Below are positions 51,699-62,573 of a stretch of 64,000 bases of DNA, in pieces. Origin of the DNA: a virus (Duplodnaviria; Caudoviricetes); the IMG/VR virus record IMGVR_UViG_3300037467_003067, positions 160,001 through 224,000 of that record; one strand, given 5' to 3'. Made by a program: the position numbers and the translations under genes. The notes beneath the pieces were generated by a model, which saw only the letters and a list, made by a program, of their open reading frames with translations, made no database searches and was not told where the DNA came from. Numbering within the stretch: the stretch's first letter is position 1; every line of letters begins with the position of its first letter.

Positions 51699-52300
51699 TG
51701 TCTTATCTCCCCACAGTAAAAAACAGAAAAAACAAAGCCGTTGAGCCGGATCGAAACCAGCAAATTGTTGCAAAGTACACCAGGTCCGACTCGACGGCTA
51801 TAAGGTCATATCCTAAAGCACAATTTGTCAGTGTGTACAGGATCACACGCCATGCCCGAGAACGATATCTCCAGAGATTTTCCAACTTATCGAAATACAA
51901 ACACATTGATTCTTGTCCTCAAAGAGATACCTGCAAGCACTGCCATTCCCTTCGCATCGCCCTCAAGCAACTCGCCGATGACCAAAGGTTCGAGGTCGAC
52001 AAGGAAATTGAACGACGGATCAACCAAGCCAAAGAAGAACGCTCTTATATCAATAATACCGAACTGATGCTTCGCCTCTGGGAAGAGTACGGCTACGATT
52101 CAAGATTCCGGTTCCTGAGAGATCAGGATGCCGTGTTCGTCATCGGTCAGAATGGTCCGATCCAGACTGTTATCACGGTATTACCCATGGGGTCTCCGAT
52201 CGGGAAACAAATCTCTGTTCATGTCAAATTCCGCAAGAAAGACAAAGGACGGCTTCCTCAACCAGAACCCGAAGAAGAAACTTACATTGCCGACAGGTGA
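51698..52300 (+). CDS. Hypothetical protein
   Basis: ITRHARERY..R and TVITV resemble BECR/RelE-like fold motifs (weak). Confidence 0.55.
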   Translation: MSYLPTVKNRKNKAVEPDRNQQIVAKYTRSDSTAIRSYPKAQFVSVYRITRHARERYLQRFSNLSKYKHIDSCPQRDTCKHCHSLRIALKQLADDQRFEVDKEIERRINQAKEERSYINNTELMLRLWEEYGYDSRFRFLRDQDAVFVIGQNGPIQTVITVLPMGSPIGKQISVHVKFRKKDKGRLPQPEPEEETYIADR

Positions 52301-52307
52301 CCCAAAG

Positions 52308-53513
52308 ATGCCAAATACTTCTCTTGACGGGATGATTGCACACCTGACCAAGGGAGCGAGGATCGAGACCAACTACAACGAGTTTCGTGACAAGCTCGCC
52401 GAAGGTCGACCATTGGTCGTGAAGTACGGCATCGATCCCACAGGGGTCGATGTCCATCTGGGTCATACCGTGCCCTTGCGTATTCTCCGGAGATTCCAGG
52501 AAGCCGGTCATCAGGCAACGATCATCATCGGTGACTTCACCGCACAGATCGGAGACCCAAGTGGTCGTAATGAGACCAGACCTCCATTATCTCGTCAGCA
52601 GATCAACGAGAACATGAAGGGCTACCTTTCGCAAATCGGCAAGTTCATCGACATGTCCAAGGTCAGGACGTTCTACAACTCCACCTGGTGTCACCGTATG
52701 CGGTTGGTGGATGTCCTCGCCGAATTCGCGCCCATAACCGCACAAAGAATGCTCGACCGCGACGACTTCTCCAAGCGGCTCAAGGAACAACAGCCCGTCT
52801 ACCTCCATGAATTCATCTATCCTGTGATCCAGGGCATCGACTCAAGAGAAATACACGCTGACGTAGAACTCGGCGGCACGGAACAACTCTATACTCTCTT
52901 GATCGCCAGAGATATCCAGCAACGCGCCGGACAACCTCAACAAACCTGCATCACGGTGCCGATCCTCCGGGGACTCGACGGCAAAAGAAGGATGGGCAAG
53001 TCCCTCAAGAACTATGTCGGGATCAATGACAGTCCTGCCGACGTGTTCGGCAAGACGATGAGCATTCCCGATGAATTGCTTCAGGAATGGTACGATCTCC
53101 TCACTGACCAAACATATAATCCCGAAAAGCACCCGAAAGGACAGAAACTCGCCCTTGCCTCCATCCTCGTCACGCAAATCTATGACAAGGAGACGGCGGC
53201 AAAAGCACAAGAAGATTGGGAGACGCAATTTTCCAAGAAGCAAGATCCCAGCGAGATTACCGAAGTCGTAATCCCGCCGCAGGAAATGTCCATCTGTCAT
53301 CTTTTGGTGGCGAGTCAACTTGCTGCCAGTCTCAGTGAAGCAAGACGTGCCATCATCCCCAACCCAAAGACAGATGGAGATGGTTCCAAGAGTAGCGTGA
53401 CACTCGGTCCCGATCGCACGAAGATCCTTGATCCCAAGACAGTGGTTGCGATCGAGGACAATATGATCCTGCGATTGGGCAAAAGGAAGATTGTCCGCAT
53501 TCGAACCAAGTAA
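52308..53513 (+). CDS. tyrS: Tyrosyl-tRNA synthetase
   Basis: GIDPT..HLGH, GDFTA.IGDPSG, ELGGTEQ, RMGKS, C-terminal S4-like domain. Confidence 0.96.
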   Translation: MPNTSLDGMIAHLTKGARIETNYNEFRDKLAEGRPLVVKYGIDPTGVDVHLGHTVPLRILRRFQEAGHQATIIIGDFTAQIGDPSGRNETRPPLSRQQINENMKGYLSQIGKFIDMSKVRTFYNSTWCHRMRLVDVLAEFAPITAQRMLDRDDFSKRLKEQQPVYLHEFIYPVIQGIDSREIHADVELGGTEQLYTLLIARDIQQRAGQPQQTCITVPILRGLDGKRRMGKSLKNYVGINDSPADVFGKTMSIPDELLQEWYDLLTDQTYNPEKHPKGQKLALASILVTQIYDKETAAKAQEDWETQFSKKQDPSEITEVVIPPQEMSICHLLVASQLAASLSEARRAIIPNPKTDGDGSKSSVTLGPDRTKILDPKTVVAIEDNMILRLGKRKIVRIRTK

Positions 53514-53639: not shown

Positions 53640-54224
53640 GTGATGAGCAGCAGAGAGGAACGTAGATCCACCAGGAGCGATCGTCGCGAGGCAATGAGCG
53701 GGAGGGACCGGAGTTCGCGACGGGATCAACCGGAAGAACGTCAGCCGGTTCGCCGCGAGGGCAGTCGGCATGGCTACCGAGCCAAGGACTACGGCTCTTG
53801 GGACGGCACCAAGGAATCGATCCCCGGCGACATCACCCGCGACAATACGCCCGACATGCGGGATGCCCGCAACCGCGAGGCATTCCTCGGGGAGTCCGAA
53901 GAAGAGCGACGGGAGCGGACCGCCCGCCAGATCCAAGGACAAAGCACGGAAGGTGGACGTCGCGACCGAACACGCAGGCGGGAACCAGAGGATCGGAGTC
54001 GGCGTACCGAATCACGGCGTGACCAAAGTGACCGATCCCAAGGGGGCGGCAGTGATCAGCCCCAACGGGCAACCATGGATGATCTCGATAGTGTCCTGAA
54101 CGATCTCGAAGACATCATCGAGGACGCCGACGACAACGATCTCCTCTCCGTGGCTGAGGACTTGTACAAGATCCAGGGGAATCTCTTGAGCGAGATCGGA
54201 CGTCGTGACCGTCCAAGGAGTTGA
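53640..54224 (+). CDS. Arg/Asp/Glu-rich disordered protein with C-terminal helical hairpin
   Basis: 194-aa ORF with GGGAGG RBS. Confidence 0.65.
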   Translation: MMSSREERRSTRSDRREAMSGRDRSSRRDQPEERQPVRREGSRHGYRAKDYGSWDGTKESIPGDITRDNTPDMRDARNREAFLGESEEERRERTARQIQGQSTEGGRRDRTRRREPEDRSRRTESRRDQSDRSQGGGSDQPQRATMDDLDSVLNDLEDIIEDADDNDLLSVAEDLYKIQGNLLSEIGRRDRPRS

Positions 54225-54245
54225 ATCTGATCTGTTCAAAAACCA

Positions 54246-54283
54246 ACGACTCGGGTACTATGTGTTGAGTACCCGAGTCGTTG
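54246..54283. terminator. Hairpin
   Basis: AACGACTCGGGTACT...AGTACCCGAGTCGTT. Confidence 0.6.
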
Positions 54284-54526
54284 AATGGAGAATGGAAATA
54301 TGCCTCAAGACCTTGCAAAGATGAAGTCGAAAGTAACAGACTTCGTGACCATCGAAATTCGAGGAAGAAAAATCAAGGTGGCACGTGCCACTGCGTCACC
54401 CAATCCCGAAGGCGTCCGTGTGCTTCGCTCAATTTTTGAGTCAGCAGAGGCGATGCGGATTCGCGACTCCTTGAGAGATTGATTTTCGCTGCTGAAAACA
54501 AAATTGGAATTTTTTCAAAAATTGTC

Positions 54527-54555
54527 TTGTAAAATTGAAGCGACCTTGATATATT
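54527..54555 (+). promoter_or_regulatory. sigma70-type promoter upstream of leader peptide
   Basis: TTGTAA-17 bp-TATATT with extended -10 TG. Confidence 0.65.
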
Positions 54556-54609
54556 AGTACAAGACTCACTTGTAGTTCATTAGACCCTTTCAGACAAGGA
54601 ACCCGAAAA

Positions 54610-54687
54610 ATGTTATTGTCGTTGCTTAGTTTGTTTTCCTTTAGCTCGTTGCTTTATAGCAACCTGAGCATCGGAGGCATCTCGTAG
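54610..54687 (+). CDS. Putative attenuator leader peptide MLLSLLSLFSFSSLLYSNLSIGGIS (not in ORF track)
   Basis: AAGGA RBS; 8 Leu, 8 Ser, 2 Phe, 1 Tyr in 25 codons; TAG TAA double stop; terminator 27 nt later. Confidence 0.7.
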   Translation: MLLSLLSLFSFSSLLYSNLSIGGIS

Positions 54688-54714
54688 TAAGCGAATGGCA
54701 TACAAGGGTTCCTG

Positions 54715-54763
54715 AAAACCCGCCCGCTGAACCGAGAGACACGGTTCAGCGGGCGGGTTTTTT
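54715..54763 (+). terminator. Strong intrinsic terminator (putative attenuator)
   Basis: CCCGCCCGCTGAACCG-agagaca-CGGTTCAGCGGGCGGG + TTTTTT. Confidence 0.88.
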
Positions 54764-54822
54764 ATTTGGACTTTTTGACCTTCCAACAAATATCCAAAAA
54801 ATGTATAATACACGAGGCAACA

Positions 54823-54996
54823 ATGAAGAAAAAAGTCAACGAAGTCTTGAAACTAAAAAACAAGAAACCCTGGCAGGTGTCCCGAGGGCATCGAGTGGTC
54901 AAACAAACCGGTGGCATCCACGCCGACAAGCGGGTTGACGAGCCAGGCAAAGGCGGAAGAAAACAAGACCAATTCCGCAAGCTCATGGATGACTGA
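54823..54996 (+). CDS. Small basic protein (57 aa)
   Basis: MKKKVNEVLKLKNKKPWQVSRGH...GGIHADKR; GAGG RBS. Confidence 0.65.
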   Translation: MKKKVNEVLKLKNKKPWQVSRGHRVVKQTGGIHADKRVDEPGKGGRKQDQFRKLMDD

Positions 54997-55005
54997 AATA
55001 CAAAT

Positions 55006-55077
55006 GGGACTGAGGTGTAATTAGTAGCATGTTAATCTGAAAAGTTAACGGGTCGAGTGCGATTCTCGGCGGTCCCG
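55006..55077 (+). tRNA. tRNA-Phe(GAA)
   Basis: GGGACTG/CGGTCCC acceptor; TTAAT-CTGAAAA-GTTAA anticodon arm. Confidence 0.8.
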
Positions 55078-55113
55078 CTTCTTTGACAATTTGGCAAATC
55101 TTTAAGCATAATT

Positions 55114-55224
55114 CATTGACGATGCCCCTCGCAACCGGGGGTGCCTCACGTTGATTAAGCCGGATAAAAGCTAGGTTAGAAGCTCGCCGGTCCTAGGAGC
55201 GAGTGAAGGCTATATTCGTCAGTG
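55114..55224 (+). ncRNA. Unidentified structured RNA candidate (~110 nt)
   Basis: Closing stem CATTGACGA/TCGTCAGTG with nested hairpins. Confidence 0.4.
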
Positions 55225-55263
55225 AAAAACAATTTAAACAATAACTTAAATTCAAACTAAGCA

Positions 55264-55515
55264 ATGAAAAAAGTAATTCACGTTAATCAACACAAGATTA
55301 AAAGTAACCGTAAAACAGGTCTTAACGAACCGGTCCTTACCGTCAAGACCTACAAGACTAATGACTACGCTCACGAGGTCTACATCGACGGACCCTGTAA
55401 GATCATCTATCGTCCAAATAAGCCGCTCTCGTGCGGTGCCGAAGTCTGGATCGAGGTAGAGAGCGGGGTTGAAGTGGAGATAACTGATTTTCAGGGAGAG
55501 AATAGAGATGGATAA
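55264..55515 (+). CDS. Small phage hypothetical protein
   Basis: IHVNQHKI...PLSCGA.VWIE. Confidence 0.7.
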   Translation: MKKVIHVNQHKIKSNRKTGLNEPVLTVKTYKTNDYAHEVYIDGPCKIIYRPNKPLSCGAEVWIEVESGVEVEITDFQGENRDG

Positions 55516-55705
55516 CAGCAAAAATGAGGAACCAAAAATAAGGTCGTGGACTAAATTTTTGGATGCCATCTTTCCTTGGAACGGCGGTACTTGTCGGATC
55601 TGCCGCCAAAAATTTAAAACAGACGAACAATGGCATCACGTAGATGGATTGTTTGGCTATCAAATATGGAGATGTAATTGTAAAGGAAGATCGATCAATA
55701 GGTAA
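55508..55705 (+). CDS. Small Cys-containing hypothetical protein
   Basis: CRIC...CNC. Confidence 0.5.
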   Translation: MDNSKNEEPKIRSWTKFLDAIFPWNGGTCRICRQKFKTDEQWHHVDGLFGYQIWRCNCKGRSINR

Positions 55706-55717
55706 ACATTATCAAAC

Positions 55718-55794
55718 GGCAGTGTAGGAGAATTGGCATATCCGCTCAGTTCAGACCTGAGTGCTTTTGTGGGTTTCGAATCCCACCACTGCCA
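55718..55794 (+). tRNA. tRNA-Leu(CAG), short variable arm
   Basis: GGCAGTG/CACTGCC; CTCAG-TTCAGAC-CTGAG. Confidence 0.8.
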
Positions 55795-55800
55795 TCATAT

Positions 55801-55882
55801 GTCCACCTGGGGGAATTAGCAGACCCGTGGTACTCAAAATGCCATGCCGAGAGGCGTACCGGTGCGAGTCCGGTGGTGGATA
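55801..55882 (+). tRNA. tRNA-Leu(CAA)
   Basis: GTCCACC/GGTGGAT; TGGTA-CTCAAAA-TGCCA; long variable arm. Confidence 0.85.
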
Positions 55883-55886
55883 CTGC

Positions 55887-55967
55887 CAGGACGTGGCGTA
55901 AAGGCAGCCGCGCTAGTCTTAGGAACTAGTCCCGTAAGGGGTGAGGGTTCAACTCCCTCCGTCCGTA
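55887..55967 (+). tRNA. tRNA-Leu(TAG), imperfect acceptor stem
   Basis: CTAGT-CTTAGGA-ACTAG; GGTTCAACTCC T arm; only 5 acceptor pairs. Confidence 0.7.
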
Positions 55968-55973
55968 CTACAT

Positions 55974-56055
55974 GACCATCTGGGGGAATTAGCAGACCCA
56001 TGGCACTTAAAATGCCATACCGCAAGGTGTCTCAGTGCAAATCTGAGGATGGTTA
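55974..56055 (+). tRNA. tRNA-Leu(TAA)
   Basis: GACCATC/GATGGTT; TGGCA-CTTAAAA-TGCCA. Confidence 0.85.
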
Positions 56056-56062
56056 CTCGAAT

Positions 56063-56143
56063 GCGTCGGCTGGGCATTGACGAGCCCAAGTGGCTGTAAC
56101 CCACTCGCCTCTGGCTGTGGCGGTTTAACTCCGTCCCGACGCA
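56063..56143 (+). tRNA. tRNA-Tyr(GTA)
   Basis: GCGTCGG/CCGACGC; AGTGG-CTGTAAC-CCACT. Confidence 0.85.
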
Positions 56144-56163
56144 CTTTATTCAGGAGAAGACCA

Positions 56164-56346
56164 ATGGCGAAGAAAAAGATGACGATTCCGGAGCAGATCA
56201 AGCACGAGGAAGCGTACGTGGACTTCCTTCGCAAGCGATTGGATTCCGAGAACTACAAATCCAGTGTAGCTCCGGAAGAGTACCAAAAGACCAAAGAGAA
56301 GTATAACAAGGCGAAGTTTCGACTGAAGACCTTGAAGACTAAGTAA
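56164..56346 (+). CDS. Small basic coiled-coil protein
   Basis: MAKKKMTIPEQ...; AGGAG RBS. Confidence 0.65.
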   Translation: MAKKKMTIPEQIKHEEAYVDFLRKRLDSENYKSSVAPEEYQKTKEKYNKAKFRLKTLKTK

Positions 56347-56359
56347 AACAAATCAATCA

Positions 56360-56444
56360 GACCTTGTGCTGGAACAGGTATACAGCGTCGGCTTAGACCC
56401 GACGGTCCCTAGTAGACATGAGGGTTCGACTCCCTCCAAGGTCA
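56360..56444 (+). tRNA. tRNA-Leu(TAG)
   Basis: GACCTTG/CAAGGTC; GTCGG-CTTAGAC-CCGAC. Confidence 0.88.
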
Positions 56445-56450
56445 TTTTAT

Positions 56451-56534
56451 CGTCCCGTGCTGGAATTGGTATACAGCACCGATTGAGGATCGGTGATCCT
56501 TAGTGATATGAGGGTTCGACTCCCTTCGGGACGA
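56451..56534 (+). tRNA. tRNA-Leu(GAG)
   Basis: CGTCCCG/CGGGACG; ACCGA-TTGAGGA-TCGGT. Confidence 0.88.
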
Positions 56535-56590
56535 CTAAATAATTATTGGATAAAAACCATATAAAAGTTAGGATTCAACTATGTTATTGA

Positions 56591-57328
56591 ATGGCAAACT
56601 CAAATGTAGAATATACTAAAGAACTTCTAGAACCATTAGTCAAAACTAGCTATTCAGTAGCCCAAGTATTACGAAAACTTGGTAAAAGATTAGACGGAGG
56701 CGTTCATTCTCATTTATCTAAAACAATTAAAAACTTAGAATTGGATACATCTCATTTTACGGGACAAAGAAGCAACTGCGGTCCGAATCACAAAGGAGGA
56801 CTTCGCAGAAGAACATGGCAAGAAGTATTAGTTTTAAGGGCTAACGATAGAAGAAAAGAAGACACATACTTATTAAGACGCGCATTAATTGAATTTGGTC
56901 GTGAATATGTTTGTAGTAATGAAAAGTGTAAAATAGCAGGAGAGTGGCTAGGACAAGAAATAACCTTAGAAATTAATCATAAAGACTGTGATTGGTCGAA
57001 CAATAAACCAGAGAACTTAGAGTTTTTGTGTCCTAATTGCCATTCTCAATACCACAAATTTCTGACACAGTCCAAACGCAAGCATAATAGACAGATTAAA
57101 ACCAAATCTAATAAGTCTAATCATTGCGTTGATTGTAACAAAGCAATATATAATAAATCTACTCGATGTAAATCATGTCAAGGTAAAACATCTCCCAATA
57201 AAATTAATTGGCCGCCAACTAATGTTTTAATTGAAATGGTCCAACAAAGTAATTACTTAGCTGTGTCAAGACAGCTAGGAGTATCTGATAACGCAATTCG
57301 TAAGAGAATTAAAAATCACGCCGCTTAG
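56591..57328 (+). mobile_element. HNH homing endonuclease inserted in tRNA array
   Basis: LEINHKD..WSNN..ENL..LCPNCH; C-terminal HTH LGVSDNAIRK; AT-rich. Confidence 0.88.
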
Positions 57329-57340
57329 TGTAGCATAAGT

Positions 57341-57427
57341 GACCTTGTGGTGAAATTGGCGAGACACGGCGGGCTTAAACCCCGTTGCCTGTTAAAGGGC
57401 ATCCCAGTTCGAATCTGGGCAAGGTTA
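57341..57427 (+). tRNA. tRNA-Leu(TAA)
   Basis: GACCTTG/CAAGGTT; GCGGG-CTTAAAC-CCCGT. Confidence 0.85.
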
Positions 57428-57433
57428 TCATTG

Positions 57434-57515
57434 GGAGGGGTGGACACAGGCACGTCAGACCGGTTGCTAACCGGCTCGCCGGAAACGGTTGCAGGTTCAA
57501 ATCCTGTCCCCTCCG
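57434..57515 (+). tRNA. tRNA-Ser(GCT)
   Basis: GGAGGGG/CCCCTCC; CCGG-TTGCTAA-CCGG; G73. Confidence 0.82.
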
Positions 57516-57574
57516 CTCAATCAAAAAATCGAGAAATAAAATGAGTATCTTTTGAGTTGACAAATACATAATGC

Positions 57575-59644
57575 ATGAGCAAAAATTTGATCAACATCAA
57601 TAACGCCTGTATCCCCAATAAGATATTGAGCGACACAATTTACCCCCTACTTAATAACGCTTTGTTGATCGAAGGACCGCAAGGACCATCGGGACCTCAA
57701 GGTGGTGGAGGCTCTTTGGAAATTGGAGGCGATATCATTGGGGGAACGGCATCATCTGTTCTCTTTGTGGGCAATTCTGGAATTCTCAATCAAGACACAT
57801 CAGGACTTGTTTACAACGTTAGCTCCAAGAGATTGGGTGTAGGTGTATCTTCTCCCACGGCAGCTTTACATGCGGCTTGCAGTTCATCATCCAGCAAAGC
57901 CGCTGTTTTTCAAGGTGCATCTGGACAATCTGCCAATATTACTGAAATTCAAAATAGCAATGGAGACATACTTCACAGTTTTGATGGCTCTGGCGTTACG
58001 ACTATCAACCACACTGCCGAGGGCGGCACATCCTACTTCAGTTATATAAATAACGTAAGTGAAAGCGCCGCGACGAGTGTTCCATTTCTTCAATCCTATG
58101 GCGGCACTCCATTTACCAATACTCCGATTGGCGGTGGCGCACCAACCTCTGTCATCGACAATGTTTTTGCACAGGGTTGGGAGCGTGTACCTGGGGAGCT
58201 ACCAGGATATACGGAGAATTGGGAACATTATTGGCACACCCAATACATGACCGAGCGTCATGGCAACTTCACATCTATTGACGGAACTGTCGCTTATCGT
58301 CCATGGTACTGGATTATCAACAATGAAACTTATCGTCTAAACCGAATTGATAGAGGATACATTTATGATTGGTTTGGACGATTAGGTACATTCCCACTTT
58401 TAAGAATCCTCACGAACGACAACGACTCTGGAAGTGTGATCATTCAGAACGACGGGACCGCCCCGCCTCTGCAAGTGACCAGTCCTGGAGGCAATGTTTC
58501 ATTCACTCTCAACCCAGATGGAGCTATCCTTGCCCAATGCGGCATCAATGCAACCTCTGATTCTCCTATCCATAACGGTGTAGGGCTATTCTCAATTGGA
58601 ACCTACTGGACGGGGAGTGCTTCTTCAGGAGCCACGACAGGAATACAAACAATTGTCGCTGGAAATAACGATTTTCATCTGCTGGCTACTTCTGGAAACG
58701 CCAATTACCGCTTCATGAATAATGGCAGAATTGGAGCCAATGTAACAACAGATCGTATAACAGAAAATATTGTTATGTCCCCTGGATATCTAGCCAGCAT
58801 CAATAACGATACTCCCGCTAATGCTACTTATCGTCTAATTGGCTTGAATGCTACAGATCAAGTGGACATTGACACAGATCGACGTGGAGTTGTATTTGGA
58901 ACTGGCATTCAATTTTCTGAGTCTGACTTTGGCAACGGTCGCATTCCCATAGTCACACTCGGCCTAACTGGAACCACAGGATCGCCTAACGGAATTGATG
59001 CAACGATTTCCACTTGGTTCCAAAGAAGGGTGGTTAGTCGAGAAATATGGATTGGAACTGACACCGACACAGGGGCCACACGCATCCAAGGATCGGGAGG
59101 TTTGACAGTAAGCTGTGGGGCTTCGGGTACGAATAATTCGTTATTCCTCTCCACCTCGGCAAATTATACCGTCGCCAATAGTTGCCGCATCCTCTTTGGA
59201 CCCCACTTCGGGTTCTTACCCGCTAACGCGAATTGCCCCTTCATGGAAGGATACAACGACCTTAGCTCAAATGGCGGCGTTGACGGTGGATTGAAGTTTG
59301 GAACCTATTATTCATCAGGCGATGGGCTGGCTGTTCGGCTGAAGATTTCTCCCATTGGATTTATTGGAATTCACGAGACATCTCCCGGTGGTCAACTCCA
59401 TGTTACCACCAGTTCCGCAACCACCATCGGAACGATTACCAGAGCCGCCCCGTCACAGACTGCAAATCTCTCCGAGTGGCAGGACAATAATGGCAATCCT
59501 TTATCTTCCATCAAGTTTAACGGGAGCTATGCGCCACCATCACTAGCCGACTCCGCAGCCGCAAACAATTCAATATATTACAGCACTACTCAATCGAAAC
59601 TATGCTACAAAGATCCAGGAGGAGTATCTAATCCACTTTACTAA
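57575..59644 (+). CDS. Tail fibre/adhesin-like protein
   Basis: GPQGPSGPQG collagen-like stretch; repeated G(V/I)G...P...LH and QSANITE/QTANLSE fibre motifs; Gly/Ser/Thr-rich. Confidence 0.7.
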   Translation: MSKNLININNACIPNKILSDTIYPLLNNALLIEGPQGPSGPQGGGGSLEIGGDIIGGTASSVLFVGNSGILNQDTSGLVYNVSSKRLGVGVSSPTAALHAACSSSSSKAAVFQGASGQSANITEIQNSNGDILHSFDGSGVTTINHTAEGGTSYFSYINNVSESAATSVPFLQSYGGTPFTNTPIGGGAPTSVIDNVFAQGWERVPGELPGYTENWEHYWHTQYMTERHGNFTSIDGTVAYRPWYWIINNETYRLNRIDRGYIYDWFGRLGTFPLLRILTNDNDSGSVIIQNDGTAPPLQVTSPGGNVSFTLNPDGAILAQCGINATSDSPIHNGVGLFSIGTYWTGSASSGATTGIQTIVAGNNDFHLLATSGNANYRFMNNGRIGANVTTDRITENIVMSPGYLASINNDTPANATYRLIGLNATDQVDIDTDRRGVVFGTGIQFSESDFGNGRIPIVTLGLTGTTGSPNGIDATISTWFQRRVVSREIWIGTDTDTGATRIQGSGGLTVSCGASGTNNSLFLSTSANYTVANSCRILFGPHFGFLPANANCPFMEGYNDLSSNGGVDGGLKFGTYYSSGDGLAVRLKISPIGFIGIHETSPGGQLHVTTSSATTIGTITRAAPSQTANLSEWQDNNGNPLSSIKFNGSYAPPSLADSAAANNSIYYSTTQSKLCYKDPGGVSNPLY

Positions 59645-59772
59645 TGTATTCGTGAGTTTTTTCGTCATATCGCAGAGGTTGGATCGTTCTCGTGTGCGGG
59701 GCTGTATGCGTGCGATCCGAAACCGGTGATCGAGGTGGTCATGGAAGTGACCAAGCAGGAGTTTGAAAAGCT

Positions 59773-59804
59773 GCGAAGCCCACGGGACATTCCGTGGGCT
59801 TCGC
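59773..59804. terminator. Hairpin between convergent genes
   Basis: GCGAAGCCCACGG...CCGTGGGCTTCGC. Confidence 0.6.
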
Positions 59805-59807
59805 TAG

Positions 59808-60275
59808 TCACTCGCCACCAGCGACAAATCTACCGCGTCGAACCATTGGACCAACGCTCGACCTGTCAGGTGCGAAGGCTAGTTGATTGTAGTTTGCACC
59901 GGGACCGCTGTGTCGTGAGAAGTGCGGAAATTCGGATGGCAATCCATTGTCGCCGTAATCGGACGGGACATGACCGGCATGAGGACCACGGCCCATTGAC
60001 GCAGCCTTGATTGGATTGGACGGCATCTCGGTTCCGTACTTCTTGTCCATGATCATGTCGATGATACGATATCGCAGTTTCTTTTCCTCTTGATCATCGT
60101 TGACCGTGTGGAGCTTATTCCAGAATTTGGCAGCCAGTGGTTTGGGGAGCATGTCGAGAAGTTGGTCGGTGTCGAGGTAGTGGAGATACGCCCAATGATT
60201 GGCGTAGTCGCTGTTGTTTTCTCGCATCGCCATATCATACTTCATTTGCTCATAGAATTGATAGAAAGATTGCAT
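59808..60275 (-). CDS. Hypothetical protein with capsid-targeting-like N-terminus
   Basis: Starts MQSFYQFYEQ; AGGA RBS. Confidence 0.65.
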   Translation of the reverse strand: MQSFYQFYEQMKYDMAMRENNSDYANHWAYLHYLDTDQLLDMLPKPLAAKFWNKLHTVNDDQEEKKLRYRIIDMIMDKKYGTEMPSNPIKAASMGRGPHAGHVPSDYGDNGLPSEFPHFSRHSGPGANYNQLAFAPDRSSVGPMVRRGRFVAGGE

Positions 60276-60339
60276 GAATTGGTTTCCTAAAGAGACTAGG
60301 TGATATTTTATATAGATTGGTATAATTATTTAATATATT

Positions 60340-60421
60340 GGTAGTGATCCGAAGTTGGCGAGGACACCCGCTTGAACCGGGCTGCCCGAAAGGGTTGAGA
60401 GGTCGGCACTCTCCGCTACCG
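60340..60421 (+). tRNA. tRNA-Ser(TGA), atypical T loop
   Basis: GGTAGTG/CGCTACC; CCCG-CTTGAAC-CGGG; long variable arm; T loop lacks TTC. Confidence 0.7.
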
Positions 60422-60445
60422 CTCTTATTTAGAAAGGACAAGATT

Positions 60446-60736
60446 ATGGCGGGCTATATTGCGTGCTATGAACACAGCGACAACGCGACTAAGAACAAGG
60501 CGGCGGCGATGGTCAAGGTGACATGCCAGACCGATTTCGCTGCTAAAACTGAGGAGTTCGTCAGTTTTTGTCAGCGGATTGCCAAGCTGGCGTGTGGGTT
60601 CCAGATCGAGGACACCAAGGCGTTCCTCGAAATCATCGAAAACGATTTCGAGGATCTTGCTGCTGATCTTGATGCTTTAAGAACTGACCTCAAAGAAAAC
60701 ATTGAAATTGCCGCAATCCGGGTCATGAAACTTTGA
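60446..60736 (+). CDS. Truncated elongation factor Ts-like protein
   Basis: GYIACYEH...MVKVTCQTDFAAKTEEF...LKENIEI matches the EF-Ts core (TDFV) subdomain; 96 aa. Confidence 0.75.
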   Translation: MAGYIACYEHSDNATKNKAAAMVKVTCQTDFAAKTEEFVSFCQRIAKLACGFQIEDTKAFLEIIENDFEDLAADLDALRTDLKENIEIAAIRVMKL

Positions 60737-60744
60737 AATTAATC

Positions 60745-60772
60745 TTGTAGCACATATCGATATGTGCTACAA
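60745..60772. repeat. Perfect loop-less 28-bp palindrome
   Basis: TTGTAGCACATATC|GATATGTGCTACAA. Confidence 0.85.
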
Positions 60773-60789
60773 TAATCAAATACAAAATT

Positions 60790-60885
60790 TCAACTCCGGA
60801 AGAAGCTGCTGAGGTATATGATAAAGCAGCACTGGAGAGATGGGGAGATAAAGCAGTGACTAATAAGTCCTTAGGGCTTTTATAA
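60790..60885 (+). pseudogene. AP2 DNA-binding domain remnant
   Basis: STPEEAAEVYDKAALERWGDKAVTN*; no in-frame ATG back to TAG at 60748. Confidence 0.65.
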
Positions 60886-60904
60886 TTTGCTGAATTAAAA
60901 TCAT

Positions 60905-60991
60905 AGTAGGAAGGCGAATGTTGGTTTGTCGCGACTAGTTGGAAGCTAGTTCCAGGTAACACTGGCAGCGGTTCAATTCCGCTTCCTACTG
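60905..60991 (+). tRNA. tRNA-Ser(GGA)
   Basis: AGTAGGA/TCCTACT; ACTAG-TTGGAAG-CTAGT; G73. Confidence 0.82.
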
Positions 60992-60995
60992 CTAA

Positions 60996-61088
60996 ACCCG
61001 ATAGGCGAATCGTTGGATAGTCGCGCCCAATTAACCCTTGGGTCCGTCTGAAATTACGGCGGGGCATGTTCGACTCATGTATCGGGTG
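60996..61088 (+). tRNA. Atypical tRNA: Ser-type body with AAC (Val) anticodon
   Basis: ACCCGAT/ATCGGGT acceptor; CCCAA-TTAACCC-TTGGG; long variable arm; TTCGACT T loop; G73. Confidence 0.65.
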
Positions 61089-61092
61089 TTAT

Positions 61093-61179
61093 GGGGGATA
61101 GGTGGATGTTGGTTTGCCTCACTTATTTCGAAAATAAGACCGTCTAATCGCGGCGCAAGTTCGATTCTTGTGTCCTCCG
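61093..61179 (+). tRNA. tRNA-Ser(CGA)
   Basis: GGGGGAT/GTCCTCC; CTTAT-TTCGAAA-ATAAG; G73. Confidence 0.8.
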
Positions 61180-61218: not shown

Positions 61219-61722
61219 ATGATTAGAATTGCCGGACATGAATTCGCCCTCGAACTCGTCAAGCACGAGTTTCTGAGTGCGCTCATCCTCAACGACCCTG
61301 GCGACGTCTATAGAACGGTGCGACAGATACGAAGTATCGCCAGAGGCTCTCTCTATCTGGAGTTCTTCGACTTAAGCGAGGAACGCAAGACTCACCGAGG
61401 TCCCATCGCTGAGGATGTGGTCCATGCGATCGAGTGGTACAAGAAGATTCAGCGTGCGACCTGGAATGATGTCGTTGTGACCTGTACAGCAGGAATTTCC
61501 CGTAGTGCTGCGATGGCGTTTGTGTTAGAATGTGTGGACAAGACGCCGCAGGAAGCATCTCAAGTCTGGAATCCCCGTCTTCACTATCCCAACAAATTGA
61601 TTGTCCGTTTAGGTGCTGAAATTCTCAGCAAGCCGGACATGATCAAGGTCTGTGATGAGTTCTGGGATGAGCGGCTTCGGAGGCGGGCATCGAAGGGGAA
61701 ACCTGCCAAGGTCGATGTTTGA
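61219..61722 (+). CDS. Cys-based phosphatase (PTP/DSP-like)
   Basis: CTAGISRSAA (CX5R), FFD, YPN. Confidence 0.8.
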   Translation: MIRIAGHEFALELVKHEFLSALILNDPGDVYRTVRQIRSIARGSLYLEFFDLSEERKTHRGPIAEDVVHAIEWYKKIQRATWNDVVVTCTAGISRSAAMAFVLECVDKTPQEASQVWNPRLHYPNKLIVRLGAEILSKPDMIKVCDEFWDERLRRRASKGKPAKVDV

Positions 61723-62141: not shown

Positions 62142-62573
62142 ATGAAAATCGTCATCAACGAGAAAGACATCAAGCGGCAGACGTTTCGCGCCGGTGGGAA
62201 GGGCGGGCAGCACCAGAACAAGACCGAGTCAGCGGTCAGGTTGACCCATATCCCCACCGGCATCATCGCCGAGTCGCGGGGCGAGCGGTGCCAGCATAAG
62301 AACAAGGAAATTGCCCTGAAGCTTTTGCTGGGCAAGATCCATCGCTACTACGAGGAGCAGGCGAATCGGAGTCAGCAGGACCAGTATAACTCCAAGGCAG
62401 ATGCGGCGTTCGGACAGCAGGTAAGGTCATACGTGTTACACGGCAAGACCCAGCAGGTGACCGATCACCGGACCGGGCACAAGGAGATGAATCCGGACCA
62501 GGTCTTACGCGGTGAGATCGACGGGTTCATCGAGGCATTTTTGAGGAAACAAATAAATGAAGGACGAGGATAA
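62142..62573 (+). CDS. Truncated peptide chain release factor (GGQ domain + RF2-like C-terminus)
   Basis: RAGGKGGQHQNKTESAVRLTHIPTG, QVRSYVL, DHRT, GEIDGFI; no N-terminal or codon-recognition domain. Confidence 0.9.
   Translation: MKIVINEKDIKRQTFRAGGKGGQHQNKTESAVRLTHIPTGIIAESRGERCQHKNKEIALKLLLGKIHRYYEEQANRSQQDQYNSKADAAFGQQVRSYVLHGKTQQVTDHRTGHKEMNPDQVLRGEIDGFIEAFLRKQINEGRG

Follow-up and report, generated by a model that had tools for sequence, protein, structure and literature searches.

A candidate leader-peptide attenuator ahead of a Leu/Ser/Phe/Tyr tRNA array in a jumbo phage

What is the role of a 25-codon open reading frame (ORF) that consists almost entirely of Leu, Ser, Phe and Tyr codons and stands, with its own promoter and terminator, ahead of a phage array of Leu, Ser, Phe and Tyr tRNA genes? 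The ORF lies in a 64,000-nucleotide stretch of viral DNA (the window), which spans positions 160001-224000 of one 298,603-bp contig (49% G+C) whose gene content resembles that of jumbo phages. The original prediction, made from the sequence alone, was that of a leader-peptide attenuator whose codons match the tRNA genes downstream, and this core idea was supported both by our structure calculations and by conservation of the unit in two relatives, the contigs L076 and L077. With a probability of roughly 0.7, we read this jumbo-phage element as a ribosome-mediated leader-peptide transcription attenuator that senses the decoding of Leu, Ser, Phe and Tyr codons.

The leader ORF and the tRNA genes behind it

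The leader unit and the genes that follow it are arranged in the window as listed here.

54527-54555, plus strand: sigma-70-type promoter, TTGTAA-17-TATATT, with a TG extension one base upstream and an A/T-rich tract upstream
54596-54600, plus strand: Shine-Dalgarno (SD) sequence AAGGA, 9 nucleotides ahead of the ATG
54610-54687, plus strand: leader ORF of 25 codons, MLLSLLSLFSFSSLLYSNLSIGGIS, ending in the tandem stops TAG TAA
54715-54770, plus strand: intrinsic terminator with a perfect 20-bp stem (13 G-C), a 7-nucleotide loop and a TTTTTTATTT tail (U-tract)
54823-54996, plus strand: orf57, encoding a small basic protein of 57 amino acids; the first gene past the terminator in the window and in L077
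55006-55078, plus strand: tRNA-Phe(gaa), 10 nucleotides past orf57, a position kept in L077 and L076
55718-61180, plus strand: the remaining array, with seven Leu, one Tyr and three Ser tRNA genes and one Ser-like AAC tRNA gene, interspersed with an HNH gene, a 689-amino-acid ORF and an EF-Ts-like ORF

The leader ORF was found where it had been predicted, and of its codons 2-20, 18 of 19 specify Leu, Ser, Phe or Tyr, with exactly the codons previously listed (TTA, four TTG, two CTT and CTG; three TCG, TCC, AGT and three AGC; two TTT; TAT). When we surveyed all ORFs of at least 20 codons in the six frames of the whole genome (n = 4,511), the leader ORF was the sole outlier for these four amino acids, with 18 of 19 consecutive codons as compared to 15 in the runner-up, and the combined share of Leu, Ser, Phe and Tyr in the phage proteome was 22.8%. 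None of 200,000 dinucleotide-preserving shuffles of the leader's 57 nucleotides reached 18 such codons in any open frame (three reached 17), which indicates that the bias is frame-specific and does not arise from T-richness or base composition. This result bears out the earlier argument that the bias is more than a T-rich artefact, as does the use of both AGY and UCN codons for Ser. Elsewhere in the genome we found no SD-ORF-terminator unit of skewed composition, and comparison with genomic codon usage revealed no clear bias of the leader towards rare codons.

The signals that delimit the unit also held up. The promoter was recovered both by a consensus scan and by separate sigma-70 scoring, ranking 14th of ~2,600 candidates under a crude genome-wide score, and its -10 region aligns with both L076 and L077. 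The AGGA/AAGG motif with a spacer of 6-9 nucleotides is enriched before the long ORFs of this phage, and the AAGGA of the leader, with its 9-nucleotide spacing, agrees with that norm. The terminator, which was present with its T-tract as predicted but has a stem of 20 rather than 16 bp, surpasses in strength all others predicted in the genome (-39.7 kcal/mol; the runner-up has -32.2 kcal/mol). Its stem begins 27 nucleotides past the leader stop codon, with corresponding distances of 23 and 22 nucleotides in the two relatives.

The array downstream comprises 13 tRNA genes called by ARAGORN: seven for Leu (cag, caa, tag, taa, tag, gag and taa), three for Ser (gct, gga and cga), one each for Phe and Tyr, and the Ser-like AAC gene; the rest of the genome has three other tRNA genes only. 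The expected set of all four Ser isoacceptors was not recovered, as Ser(TGA) was not found in the window by ARAGORN even at lowered thresholds; the relative L076 does have Ser-tga. The orf57 product is rich in Lys and Arg and has the invariant core GHR.V.Q.G.IH.DKRVD.PG..GRK.DQ. It belongs to no Pfam or PHROG family, its Atlas matches are only hypothetical viral proteins, and its AlphaFold2 model has a predicted local distance difference test score (pLDDT) of 50.

Competing RNA structures and ribosome position

Folding of the leader RNA defined three regions, of which the third is the 5′ arm of the terminator, together with a hairpin internal to the ORF and a candidate antiterminator.

54597-54650, plus strand: region 1, which runs from the SD through the start codon and half of the ORF, and pairs with region 2 in minimum-energy folds when the leader is untranslated
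54644-54669, plus strand: apical hairpin within the ORF, GCTCGTTGC...GCAACCTGAGC, with its DNA sequence conserved in L076 and L077
54673-54713, plus strand: region 2 (last codons, stops, spacer and anti-SD GGGTTCCT), with region 1 or the terminator 5′ arm as its partner
54676-54741, plus strand: candidate antiterminator (2:3) hairpin, UCUCG/CGAGA, AGCG/CGCU, GGC/GCC and GGGUU/AACCC, -18.9 kcal/mol

In the untranslated leader RNA, the SD, the start codon and the first 10 codons formed a long imperfect hairpin with the last codons, the stops and the spacer, directly followed by the terminator (3:4); the fold of 54562-54714 had a z score of -2.66. The predicted pairing between AGGAACCC over the SD (54597-54604) and the anti-SD (54706-54713) was seen in the minimum-energy fold. 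When region 1 was masked, region 2 instead paired with the terminator 5′ arm, engaging 14 of its 20 nucleotides. Competing structures therefore exist, as had been proposed, but the GGGTT/AACCC pairing put forward as the alternative is just the base of the 2:3 helix, and the antiterminator that the earlier reading had been unable to identify now has a computed candidate.

To place the ribosome in these folds, we used a queue model in which the message is covered between the SD and the foremost ribosome and pairs are limited to local spans, and we ran identical calculations on seven E. coli attenuators (thrL, trpL, hisL, leuL, ilvL, pheL and pheM). In all seven controls, sequestration of the terminator 5′ arm amounted to -6 to -15 kcal/mol with the ribosome on the regulatory codons and to ~0 at the stop codon. 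In the window it was -10 to -12.7 kcal/mol on codons 2-20, fell from codon 21 onward, and was -6.0 kcal/mol at the stop codon and -4.9 kcal/mol without a ribosome, so that in this calculation sequestration depends on ribosome position as it does in the E. coli attenuators. The barrier for refolding from antiterminator to terminator was 9.7-10.5 kcal/mol in the window, as compared to an E. coli range of 5.8-15.6 kcal/mol. Pairing the upstream region with the terminator arm as a plain duplex gave no significant result (16% of shuffles), and a search of Rfam returned only tRNA matches at the gathering score, the best leader-type match being Phe_leader (19 bits, E=1.9, cut-off 55).

These structures suggest a mechanism in which transcription would begin at the 54527 promoter, and a ribosome would load at AAGGA and translate the 25-codon Leu/Ser/Phe/Tyr leader. 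With fast decoding, the ribosome would get to the tandem stops and cover region 2, allowing the 20-bp terminator to form; if the leader were untranslated, region 2 would be held by region 1 and the terminator would again form. Termination would yield a transcript of ~205 nucleotides ending at ~54768. A ribosome slowed within codons 2-20, as when charged Leu, Ser, Phe or Tyr tRNA is short, would leave region 2 free to bind the terminator 5′ arm, and once the antiterminator had formed the polymerase would continue into orf57, tRNA-Phe and the Leu/Ser/Tyr tRNA array. The outcome would be negative feedback, whereby slow decoding of the four amino acids raises transcription of the matching phage tRNA genes. 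We infer that read-through would respond to tRNA supply and that some share of the array may depend on it.

Two relatives and the weighing of other explanations

It is the relatives that tip the balance towards the attenuator reading; the window alone would not settle it. An exhaustive profile search among 1.8 billion representatives returned only two homologues of orf57, 68% and 60% identical, and the surroundings of both match the window: on the 5′ side stand a small ORF with an SD, biased again towards Leu, Ser, Phe and Tyr codons, and a terminator with a long stem, and tRNA-Phe comes on the 3′ side. A leader ORF and terminator upstream of tRNA genes are thus found in related phages too, where the codon bias of the leader is kept and its sequence differs. 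L077, an A+T-rich contig of 1.3 kb, has a strong promoter-like site (TTGAAA-17-TATAAT), AGGA with a 9-nucleotide spacer and a 26-codon ORF (MQFFLLSSNLSNLSLLLSNLSYFDIL), after which come a 21-bp terminator, a gap of 26 nucleotides, the orf57 homologue, a 56-amino-acid ORF and tRNA-Phe. L076, a contig of 3 kb, has a window-like -10 region, AGGTGA with a 6-nucleotide spacer and a GTG-started ORF (MFYLSLSLSSYSSLLFSSLSDGTLSSG), followed by a 15+3-bp terminator, a gap of 20 nucleotides and an HNH insertion overlapping the orf57 homologue; further 3′ are two tRNA-Phe genes, Ser(tga), a second HNH gene and five Leu tRNA genes. Synteny with the downstream part of the window is also seen on a second contig from the sample of L076, which has EF-Ts-like, phosphatase-like and epimerase genes.

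All 19 of codons 2-20 in the L076 leader specify Leu, Ser, Phe or Tyr, and the best window of the L077 leader has 16 of 19. The ORFs of the window and L076 align without gaps, and 12 of codons 2-20 differ between them. Four of these differences are synonymous, whereas the other eight replace the amino acid, with Ser<->Leu, Phe->Ser and Leu->Tyr among the exchanges; none leads outside the four amino acids (P=3.6e-5 given equal base changes per codon). Because the codon set was retained through 12 codon changes, selection appears to have acted on that set and not on the chemistry of the peptide.

The structural features recur as well. Minimum-energy folds of both relatives contained the 1:2 hairpin and the terminator, as in the window, and mean 5′-arm sequestration in the two was -17.4 and -13.3 kcal/mol on Leu/Ser/Phe/Tyr codons, -6.9 and -5.5 kcal/mol at the stop codon, and -3.5 and -5.5 kcal/mol without a ribosome, with the drop starting directly past the Leu/Ser/Phe/Tyr run. 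When region 2 was tested against its own arm, the shuffle p values were 0.098 for the window and 0.002 and 0.022 for the relatives (Fisher combined 3.9e-4), and swapping region 2 between phages made the pairing much weaker for L076 and L077. Their refolding barriers were 11.6 and 12.0 kcal/mol. Moreover, no promoter-like site was found between the terminator and the next start codon in either L076 (20 nucleotides) or L077 (26 nucleotides); because these gaps hold neither the room for a promoter nor a match to one, the next gene would have to be transcribed by read-through. The conserved regulated unit is most likely orf57 together with tRNA-Phe.

Most of the other neighbouring genes led to no informative relatives. 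The phrog_8676 neighbour led to 45 loci, none of them syntenic or leader-like. The 194-amino-acid upstream protein had identical copies in L046-L048 only, without variation, and its relatives at 41-44% identity had a convergent gene next to them and no tRNA; the one clear homologue of the 689-amino-acid ORF (L055, 41% identical) had no tRNA neighbours. Viral contigs gave no match to the tyrosyl-tRNA synthetase and orf57 as single queries or to a back-translated leader pattern, BLAST against phage records returned short tRNA matches only, and scans of metagenomes and genomes with protein alignments added no further relatives. A pattern built on the conserved hairpin had ~120 matches in bacterial genomes, all due to chance and none with a Leu/Ser/Phe/Tyr ORF.

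Several results count against the attenuator reading, some of them concerning promoter-like sites behind the terminator in the window.

54775-54809, plus strand: two overlapping promoter-like sites, TTGACC-16-AAAAAT and TTCCAA-17-TATAAT
55083-55112, plus strand: promoter-like site after tRNA-Phe, TTGACA-18-CATAAT (11/12)

The TTCCAA-17-TATAAT site (54781-54809) had been flagged before and was confirmed. With promoter-like sites 3′ of both the terminator and tRNA-Phe, the array could be expressed without read-through. With the ribosome at the stop codon, sequestration drops only to about -6 kcal/mol in the phages as compared to ~0 in E. coli, and the phage terminators, with stems of 15-21 bp and -34 to -40 kcal/mol, are longer and stronger than those of any of the E. 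coli attenuators tested (-12 to -26 kcal/mol as isolated stem-loops). In the window, the pairing of region 2 as compared to shuffles had p values of 0.06-0.10 and is not individually significant (E. coli controls, 0.000-0.068); its antiterminator is the weakest among the three phages, and its region 2 pairs with its own arm no better than the region 2 of L076 does. An equilibrium model with a single ribosome and unrestricted, long-range pairs showed almost no switch for the phage; this model was also weak for three of the seven E. coli controls and was replaced by the queue and local-span model, which recovers all seven. In L077, three codons for Asn and one for Gln also occur in the leader. 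Finally, the comparison comprises three sequences, the transcription start is an assumed one, and all of the evidence is computational.

One other explanation is that the unit is an independent gene for a hydrophobic 25-amino-acid peptide (membrane-active, lysis-related or resembling a type I toxin) that has a promoter and terminator to itself, in which case the match to the tRNA genes would be indirect or coincidental and the downstream genes of the relatives would be expressed by leaky read-through. The strong promoter, the SD and the strong terminator do delimit a ~205-nucleotide unit, the ORF is kept in three phages, and the grand average of hydropathicity (1.4-1.5) and low helical moment fit a membrane segment; sequestration of the SD in a long hairpin is known also from type I toxin mRNAs. 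We nonetheless find a peptide gene improbable, because Ser/Leu and Phe/Ser exchanges occur freely yet never lead outside the four amino acids, which is unlike the evolution of a membrane helix, and because the peptide lacks charged or anchoring residues as well as amphipathic periodicity, and no antisense promoter-like site was found in 54500-54800. An amphipathic channel peptide, considered as a variant, was rejected on a helical moment no better than that of permutations. A peptide gene would also leave unexplained both the complementarity between region 2 and the terminator arm, which co-varies in L076 and L077, and the promoter-less gap before the next gene in the relatives. That the unit is instead a non-coding small RNA, or an insulating terminator of the upstream tyrosyl-tRNA synthetase operon with a short ORF of no role, strikes us as highly improbable. 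It is a discrete promoter-to-terminator unit with a structured body (the z score given above), its terminator also ends the upstream co-oriented operon, and the Rfam search was uninformative, all of which would suit such an RNA, but neither version accounts for a frame-specific enrichment that base composition does not produce, for both AGY and UCN Ser codons in the leader, or for an ORF, SD and codon set kept in the relatives despite 12 of 19 changed codons.

A further alternative concerns the window phage in particular, where the attenuator could have decayed or been bypassed such that the leader unit always terminates and orf57 and the tRNA genes are constitutively transcribed from 54775-54809 and 55083-55112. 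Consistent with this idea, the window combines the weakest 2:3 pairing (p ~0.1) with the strongest terminator, and its gap between terminator and orf57 is 61 nucleotides long, of which ~50 (54770-54822), including promoter-like sites, are missing from both L076 and L077. However, the ORF is intact with its 18 of 19 Leu/Ser/Phe/Tyr codons, the SD and the 1:2 hairpin are kept, the barrier of ~10 kcal/mol is within the E. coli range, and the scores of the promoter-like sites are modest (rank 221 or not listed in the sigma-70 scoring), so we give complete loss of the switch little credence. The stretch 54770-54822 could be a lineage-specific bypass of the attenuator, and the window's element may be bypassed in part. 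With such sites behind the terminator and behind tRNA-Phe, the broader claim that this element alone gates the whole array and 'rescue factors' 6-8 kb downstream was not supported. For the attenuator reading, what the analysis shows is the anatomy in the sequence, the alternative structures, a calculated dependence on ribosome position and conservation in two relatives.

Known attenuators, tRNA replacement and the surrounding genes

The class of mechanism is a known one. Like the phage unit, the leader attenuators of E. coli (thrL, for Thr and Ile; ilvL, for Leu, Val and Ile; trpL, hisL, leuL and pheL) have a promoter, an SD and a leader dominated by regulatory codons (14-32 codons), a stop codon 22-62 nucleotides ahead of an intrinsic terminator, and 1:2, 2:3 and 3:4 alternatives for which the calculations gave stall-dependent sequestration of the 5′ arm and comparable refolding barriers. 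Unlike these amino-acid operons, the unit described here is phage-borne and has tRNA genes and the small orf57 protein as its proposed targets in place of biosynthetic enzymes; its leader covers four amino acids and about ten codon types, with 72% of all codons being regulatory, and it differs further in its longer terminator stems and in the pairing that partly remains with the ribosome at the stop codon. A further parallel is pheST of E. coli, whose leader attenuator (pheM) also regulates a component of the translation apparatus through the decoding of cognate codons; pheM, however, senses one amino acid and controls a synthetase, whereas the phage leader would regulate tRNAs themselves and hence sense how much of its own product is available. 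T-box riboswitches likewise attenuate transcription in response to tRNA status and have translation-related targets, but they bind uncharged tRNA directly and have no leader ORF, and the phage unit had no T-box match in Rfam even at E<=10.

Published leader-peptide systems belong to amino-acid operons and, in a few cases, to synthetase genes (PMC2965389). Our literature search found no report of leader-peptide attenuation controlling tRNA genes or in a phage, and we thus found no published description of either placement. It has been hypothesised that phage tRNA arrays make up for host tRNAs that defence nucleases destroy (PMC10264068), and Schlafen-type tRNases have been described as a tRNA-depleting defence, of which the bacterial one studied cut Lys, Met and Ala tRNAs and was not specific to those with a long arm (PMC13056530). 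As in the arrays proposed for such replacement, the array in the window covers few specificities, and it adjoins TyrRS, EF-Ts-like and RF-1-domain proteins; these papers describe no cis-regulation of phage tRNA genes by leader peptides.

If functional as its anatomy suggests, the element would allow the phage to measure the speed of decoding for four amino acids at once and to adjust the transcription of the corresponding tRNA genes. Any scarcity of charged tRNA could serve as the trigger. A more specific role, which we consider doubtful, would be that of a counter-defence sensor that is off while the host's Leu, Ser, Tyr and Phe tRNAs are intact and opens when a tRNase of the host, or one triggered by the phage, hits long-variable-arm and Phe tRNAs and depletes them, switching on orf57 and the replacement tRNAs; were this so, the phage would detect translation-targeting immunity through ribosome stalling on its own leader. 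In either case, the attenuator would offer a testable handle on whether narrow phage tRNA sets serve codon supply or replacement after tRNA cleavage, it would make the conserved orf57 the first regulated product, and the leader unit, as a small natural device that senses how Leu, Ser, Phe and Tyr codons are decoded, could find use as a reporter.

The array and its counterparts in relatives have further features of note. The window's Leu(cag) gene (55718-55794) is only 77 nucleotides long and has no long variable arm according to ARAGORN, and the same holds in L076 for four Leu genes of 74 nucleotides and the 73-nucleotide Ser(tga) (1193-1265; 2270-2580), so the arrays are not purely composed of long-arm tRNAs. 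The Ser-like gene with the AAC anticodon (93 nucleotides, 60996-61088) lies between Ser(gga) and Ser(cga), and the relative L074 has at the equivalent place after its Ser cluster an 88-nucleotide long-arm tRNA called Cys(gca) (618-705); on the strength of this position, a long-arm tRNA with an odd anticodon seems to be a conserved member of the cluster. Between Ser(cga) and this tRNA, L074 has short direct repeats (376-617; GAACTGGTCTTAGAA twice and then a variant) in a stretch where no gene was called. HNH homing-endonuclease genes occur in the tRNA regions of both the window (56591-57328) and L076 (240-575 and 1404-2039), and one of those in L076 sits exactly between the attenuator terminator and the orf57 homologue, overlapping the start of the latter.

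On the 5′ side of the leader unit and co-oriented with it are genes for an AAA+ ATPase, a GCV_H-like protein, tyrosyl-tRNA synthetase and two further proteins without an assigned function. Between the plus-strand ORFs at 53640-54224 and 54285-54482 is a minus-strand 17-bp hairpin with a T-tract (54243-54284, -29.6 kcal/mol), with no minus-strand gene nearby for it to terminate. The synthetase (52128-53513; PF00579, E=4e-65) forms a translation module around the array with a truncated EF-Ts-like ORF (60338-60736; PF00889, E=5e-10) and, past the array, a 143-amino-acid protein with an RF-1/GGQ domain (62142-62573; PF00472, E=5e-30). Directly after the Ser tRNA cluster, the window and the relatives L074, L075 and L198 have a gene for a Cys-phosphatase-like protein (52-53% identity), which in the window has 167 amino acids (61219-61722), a weak DSPc match and a conserved C-x5-R-type motif.

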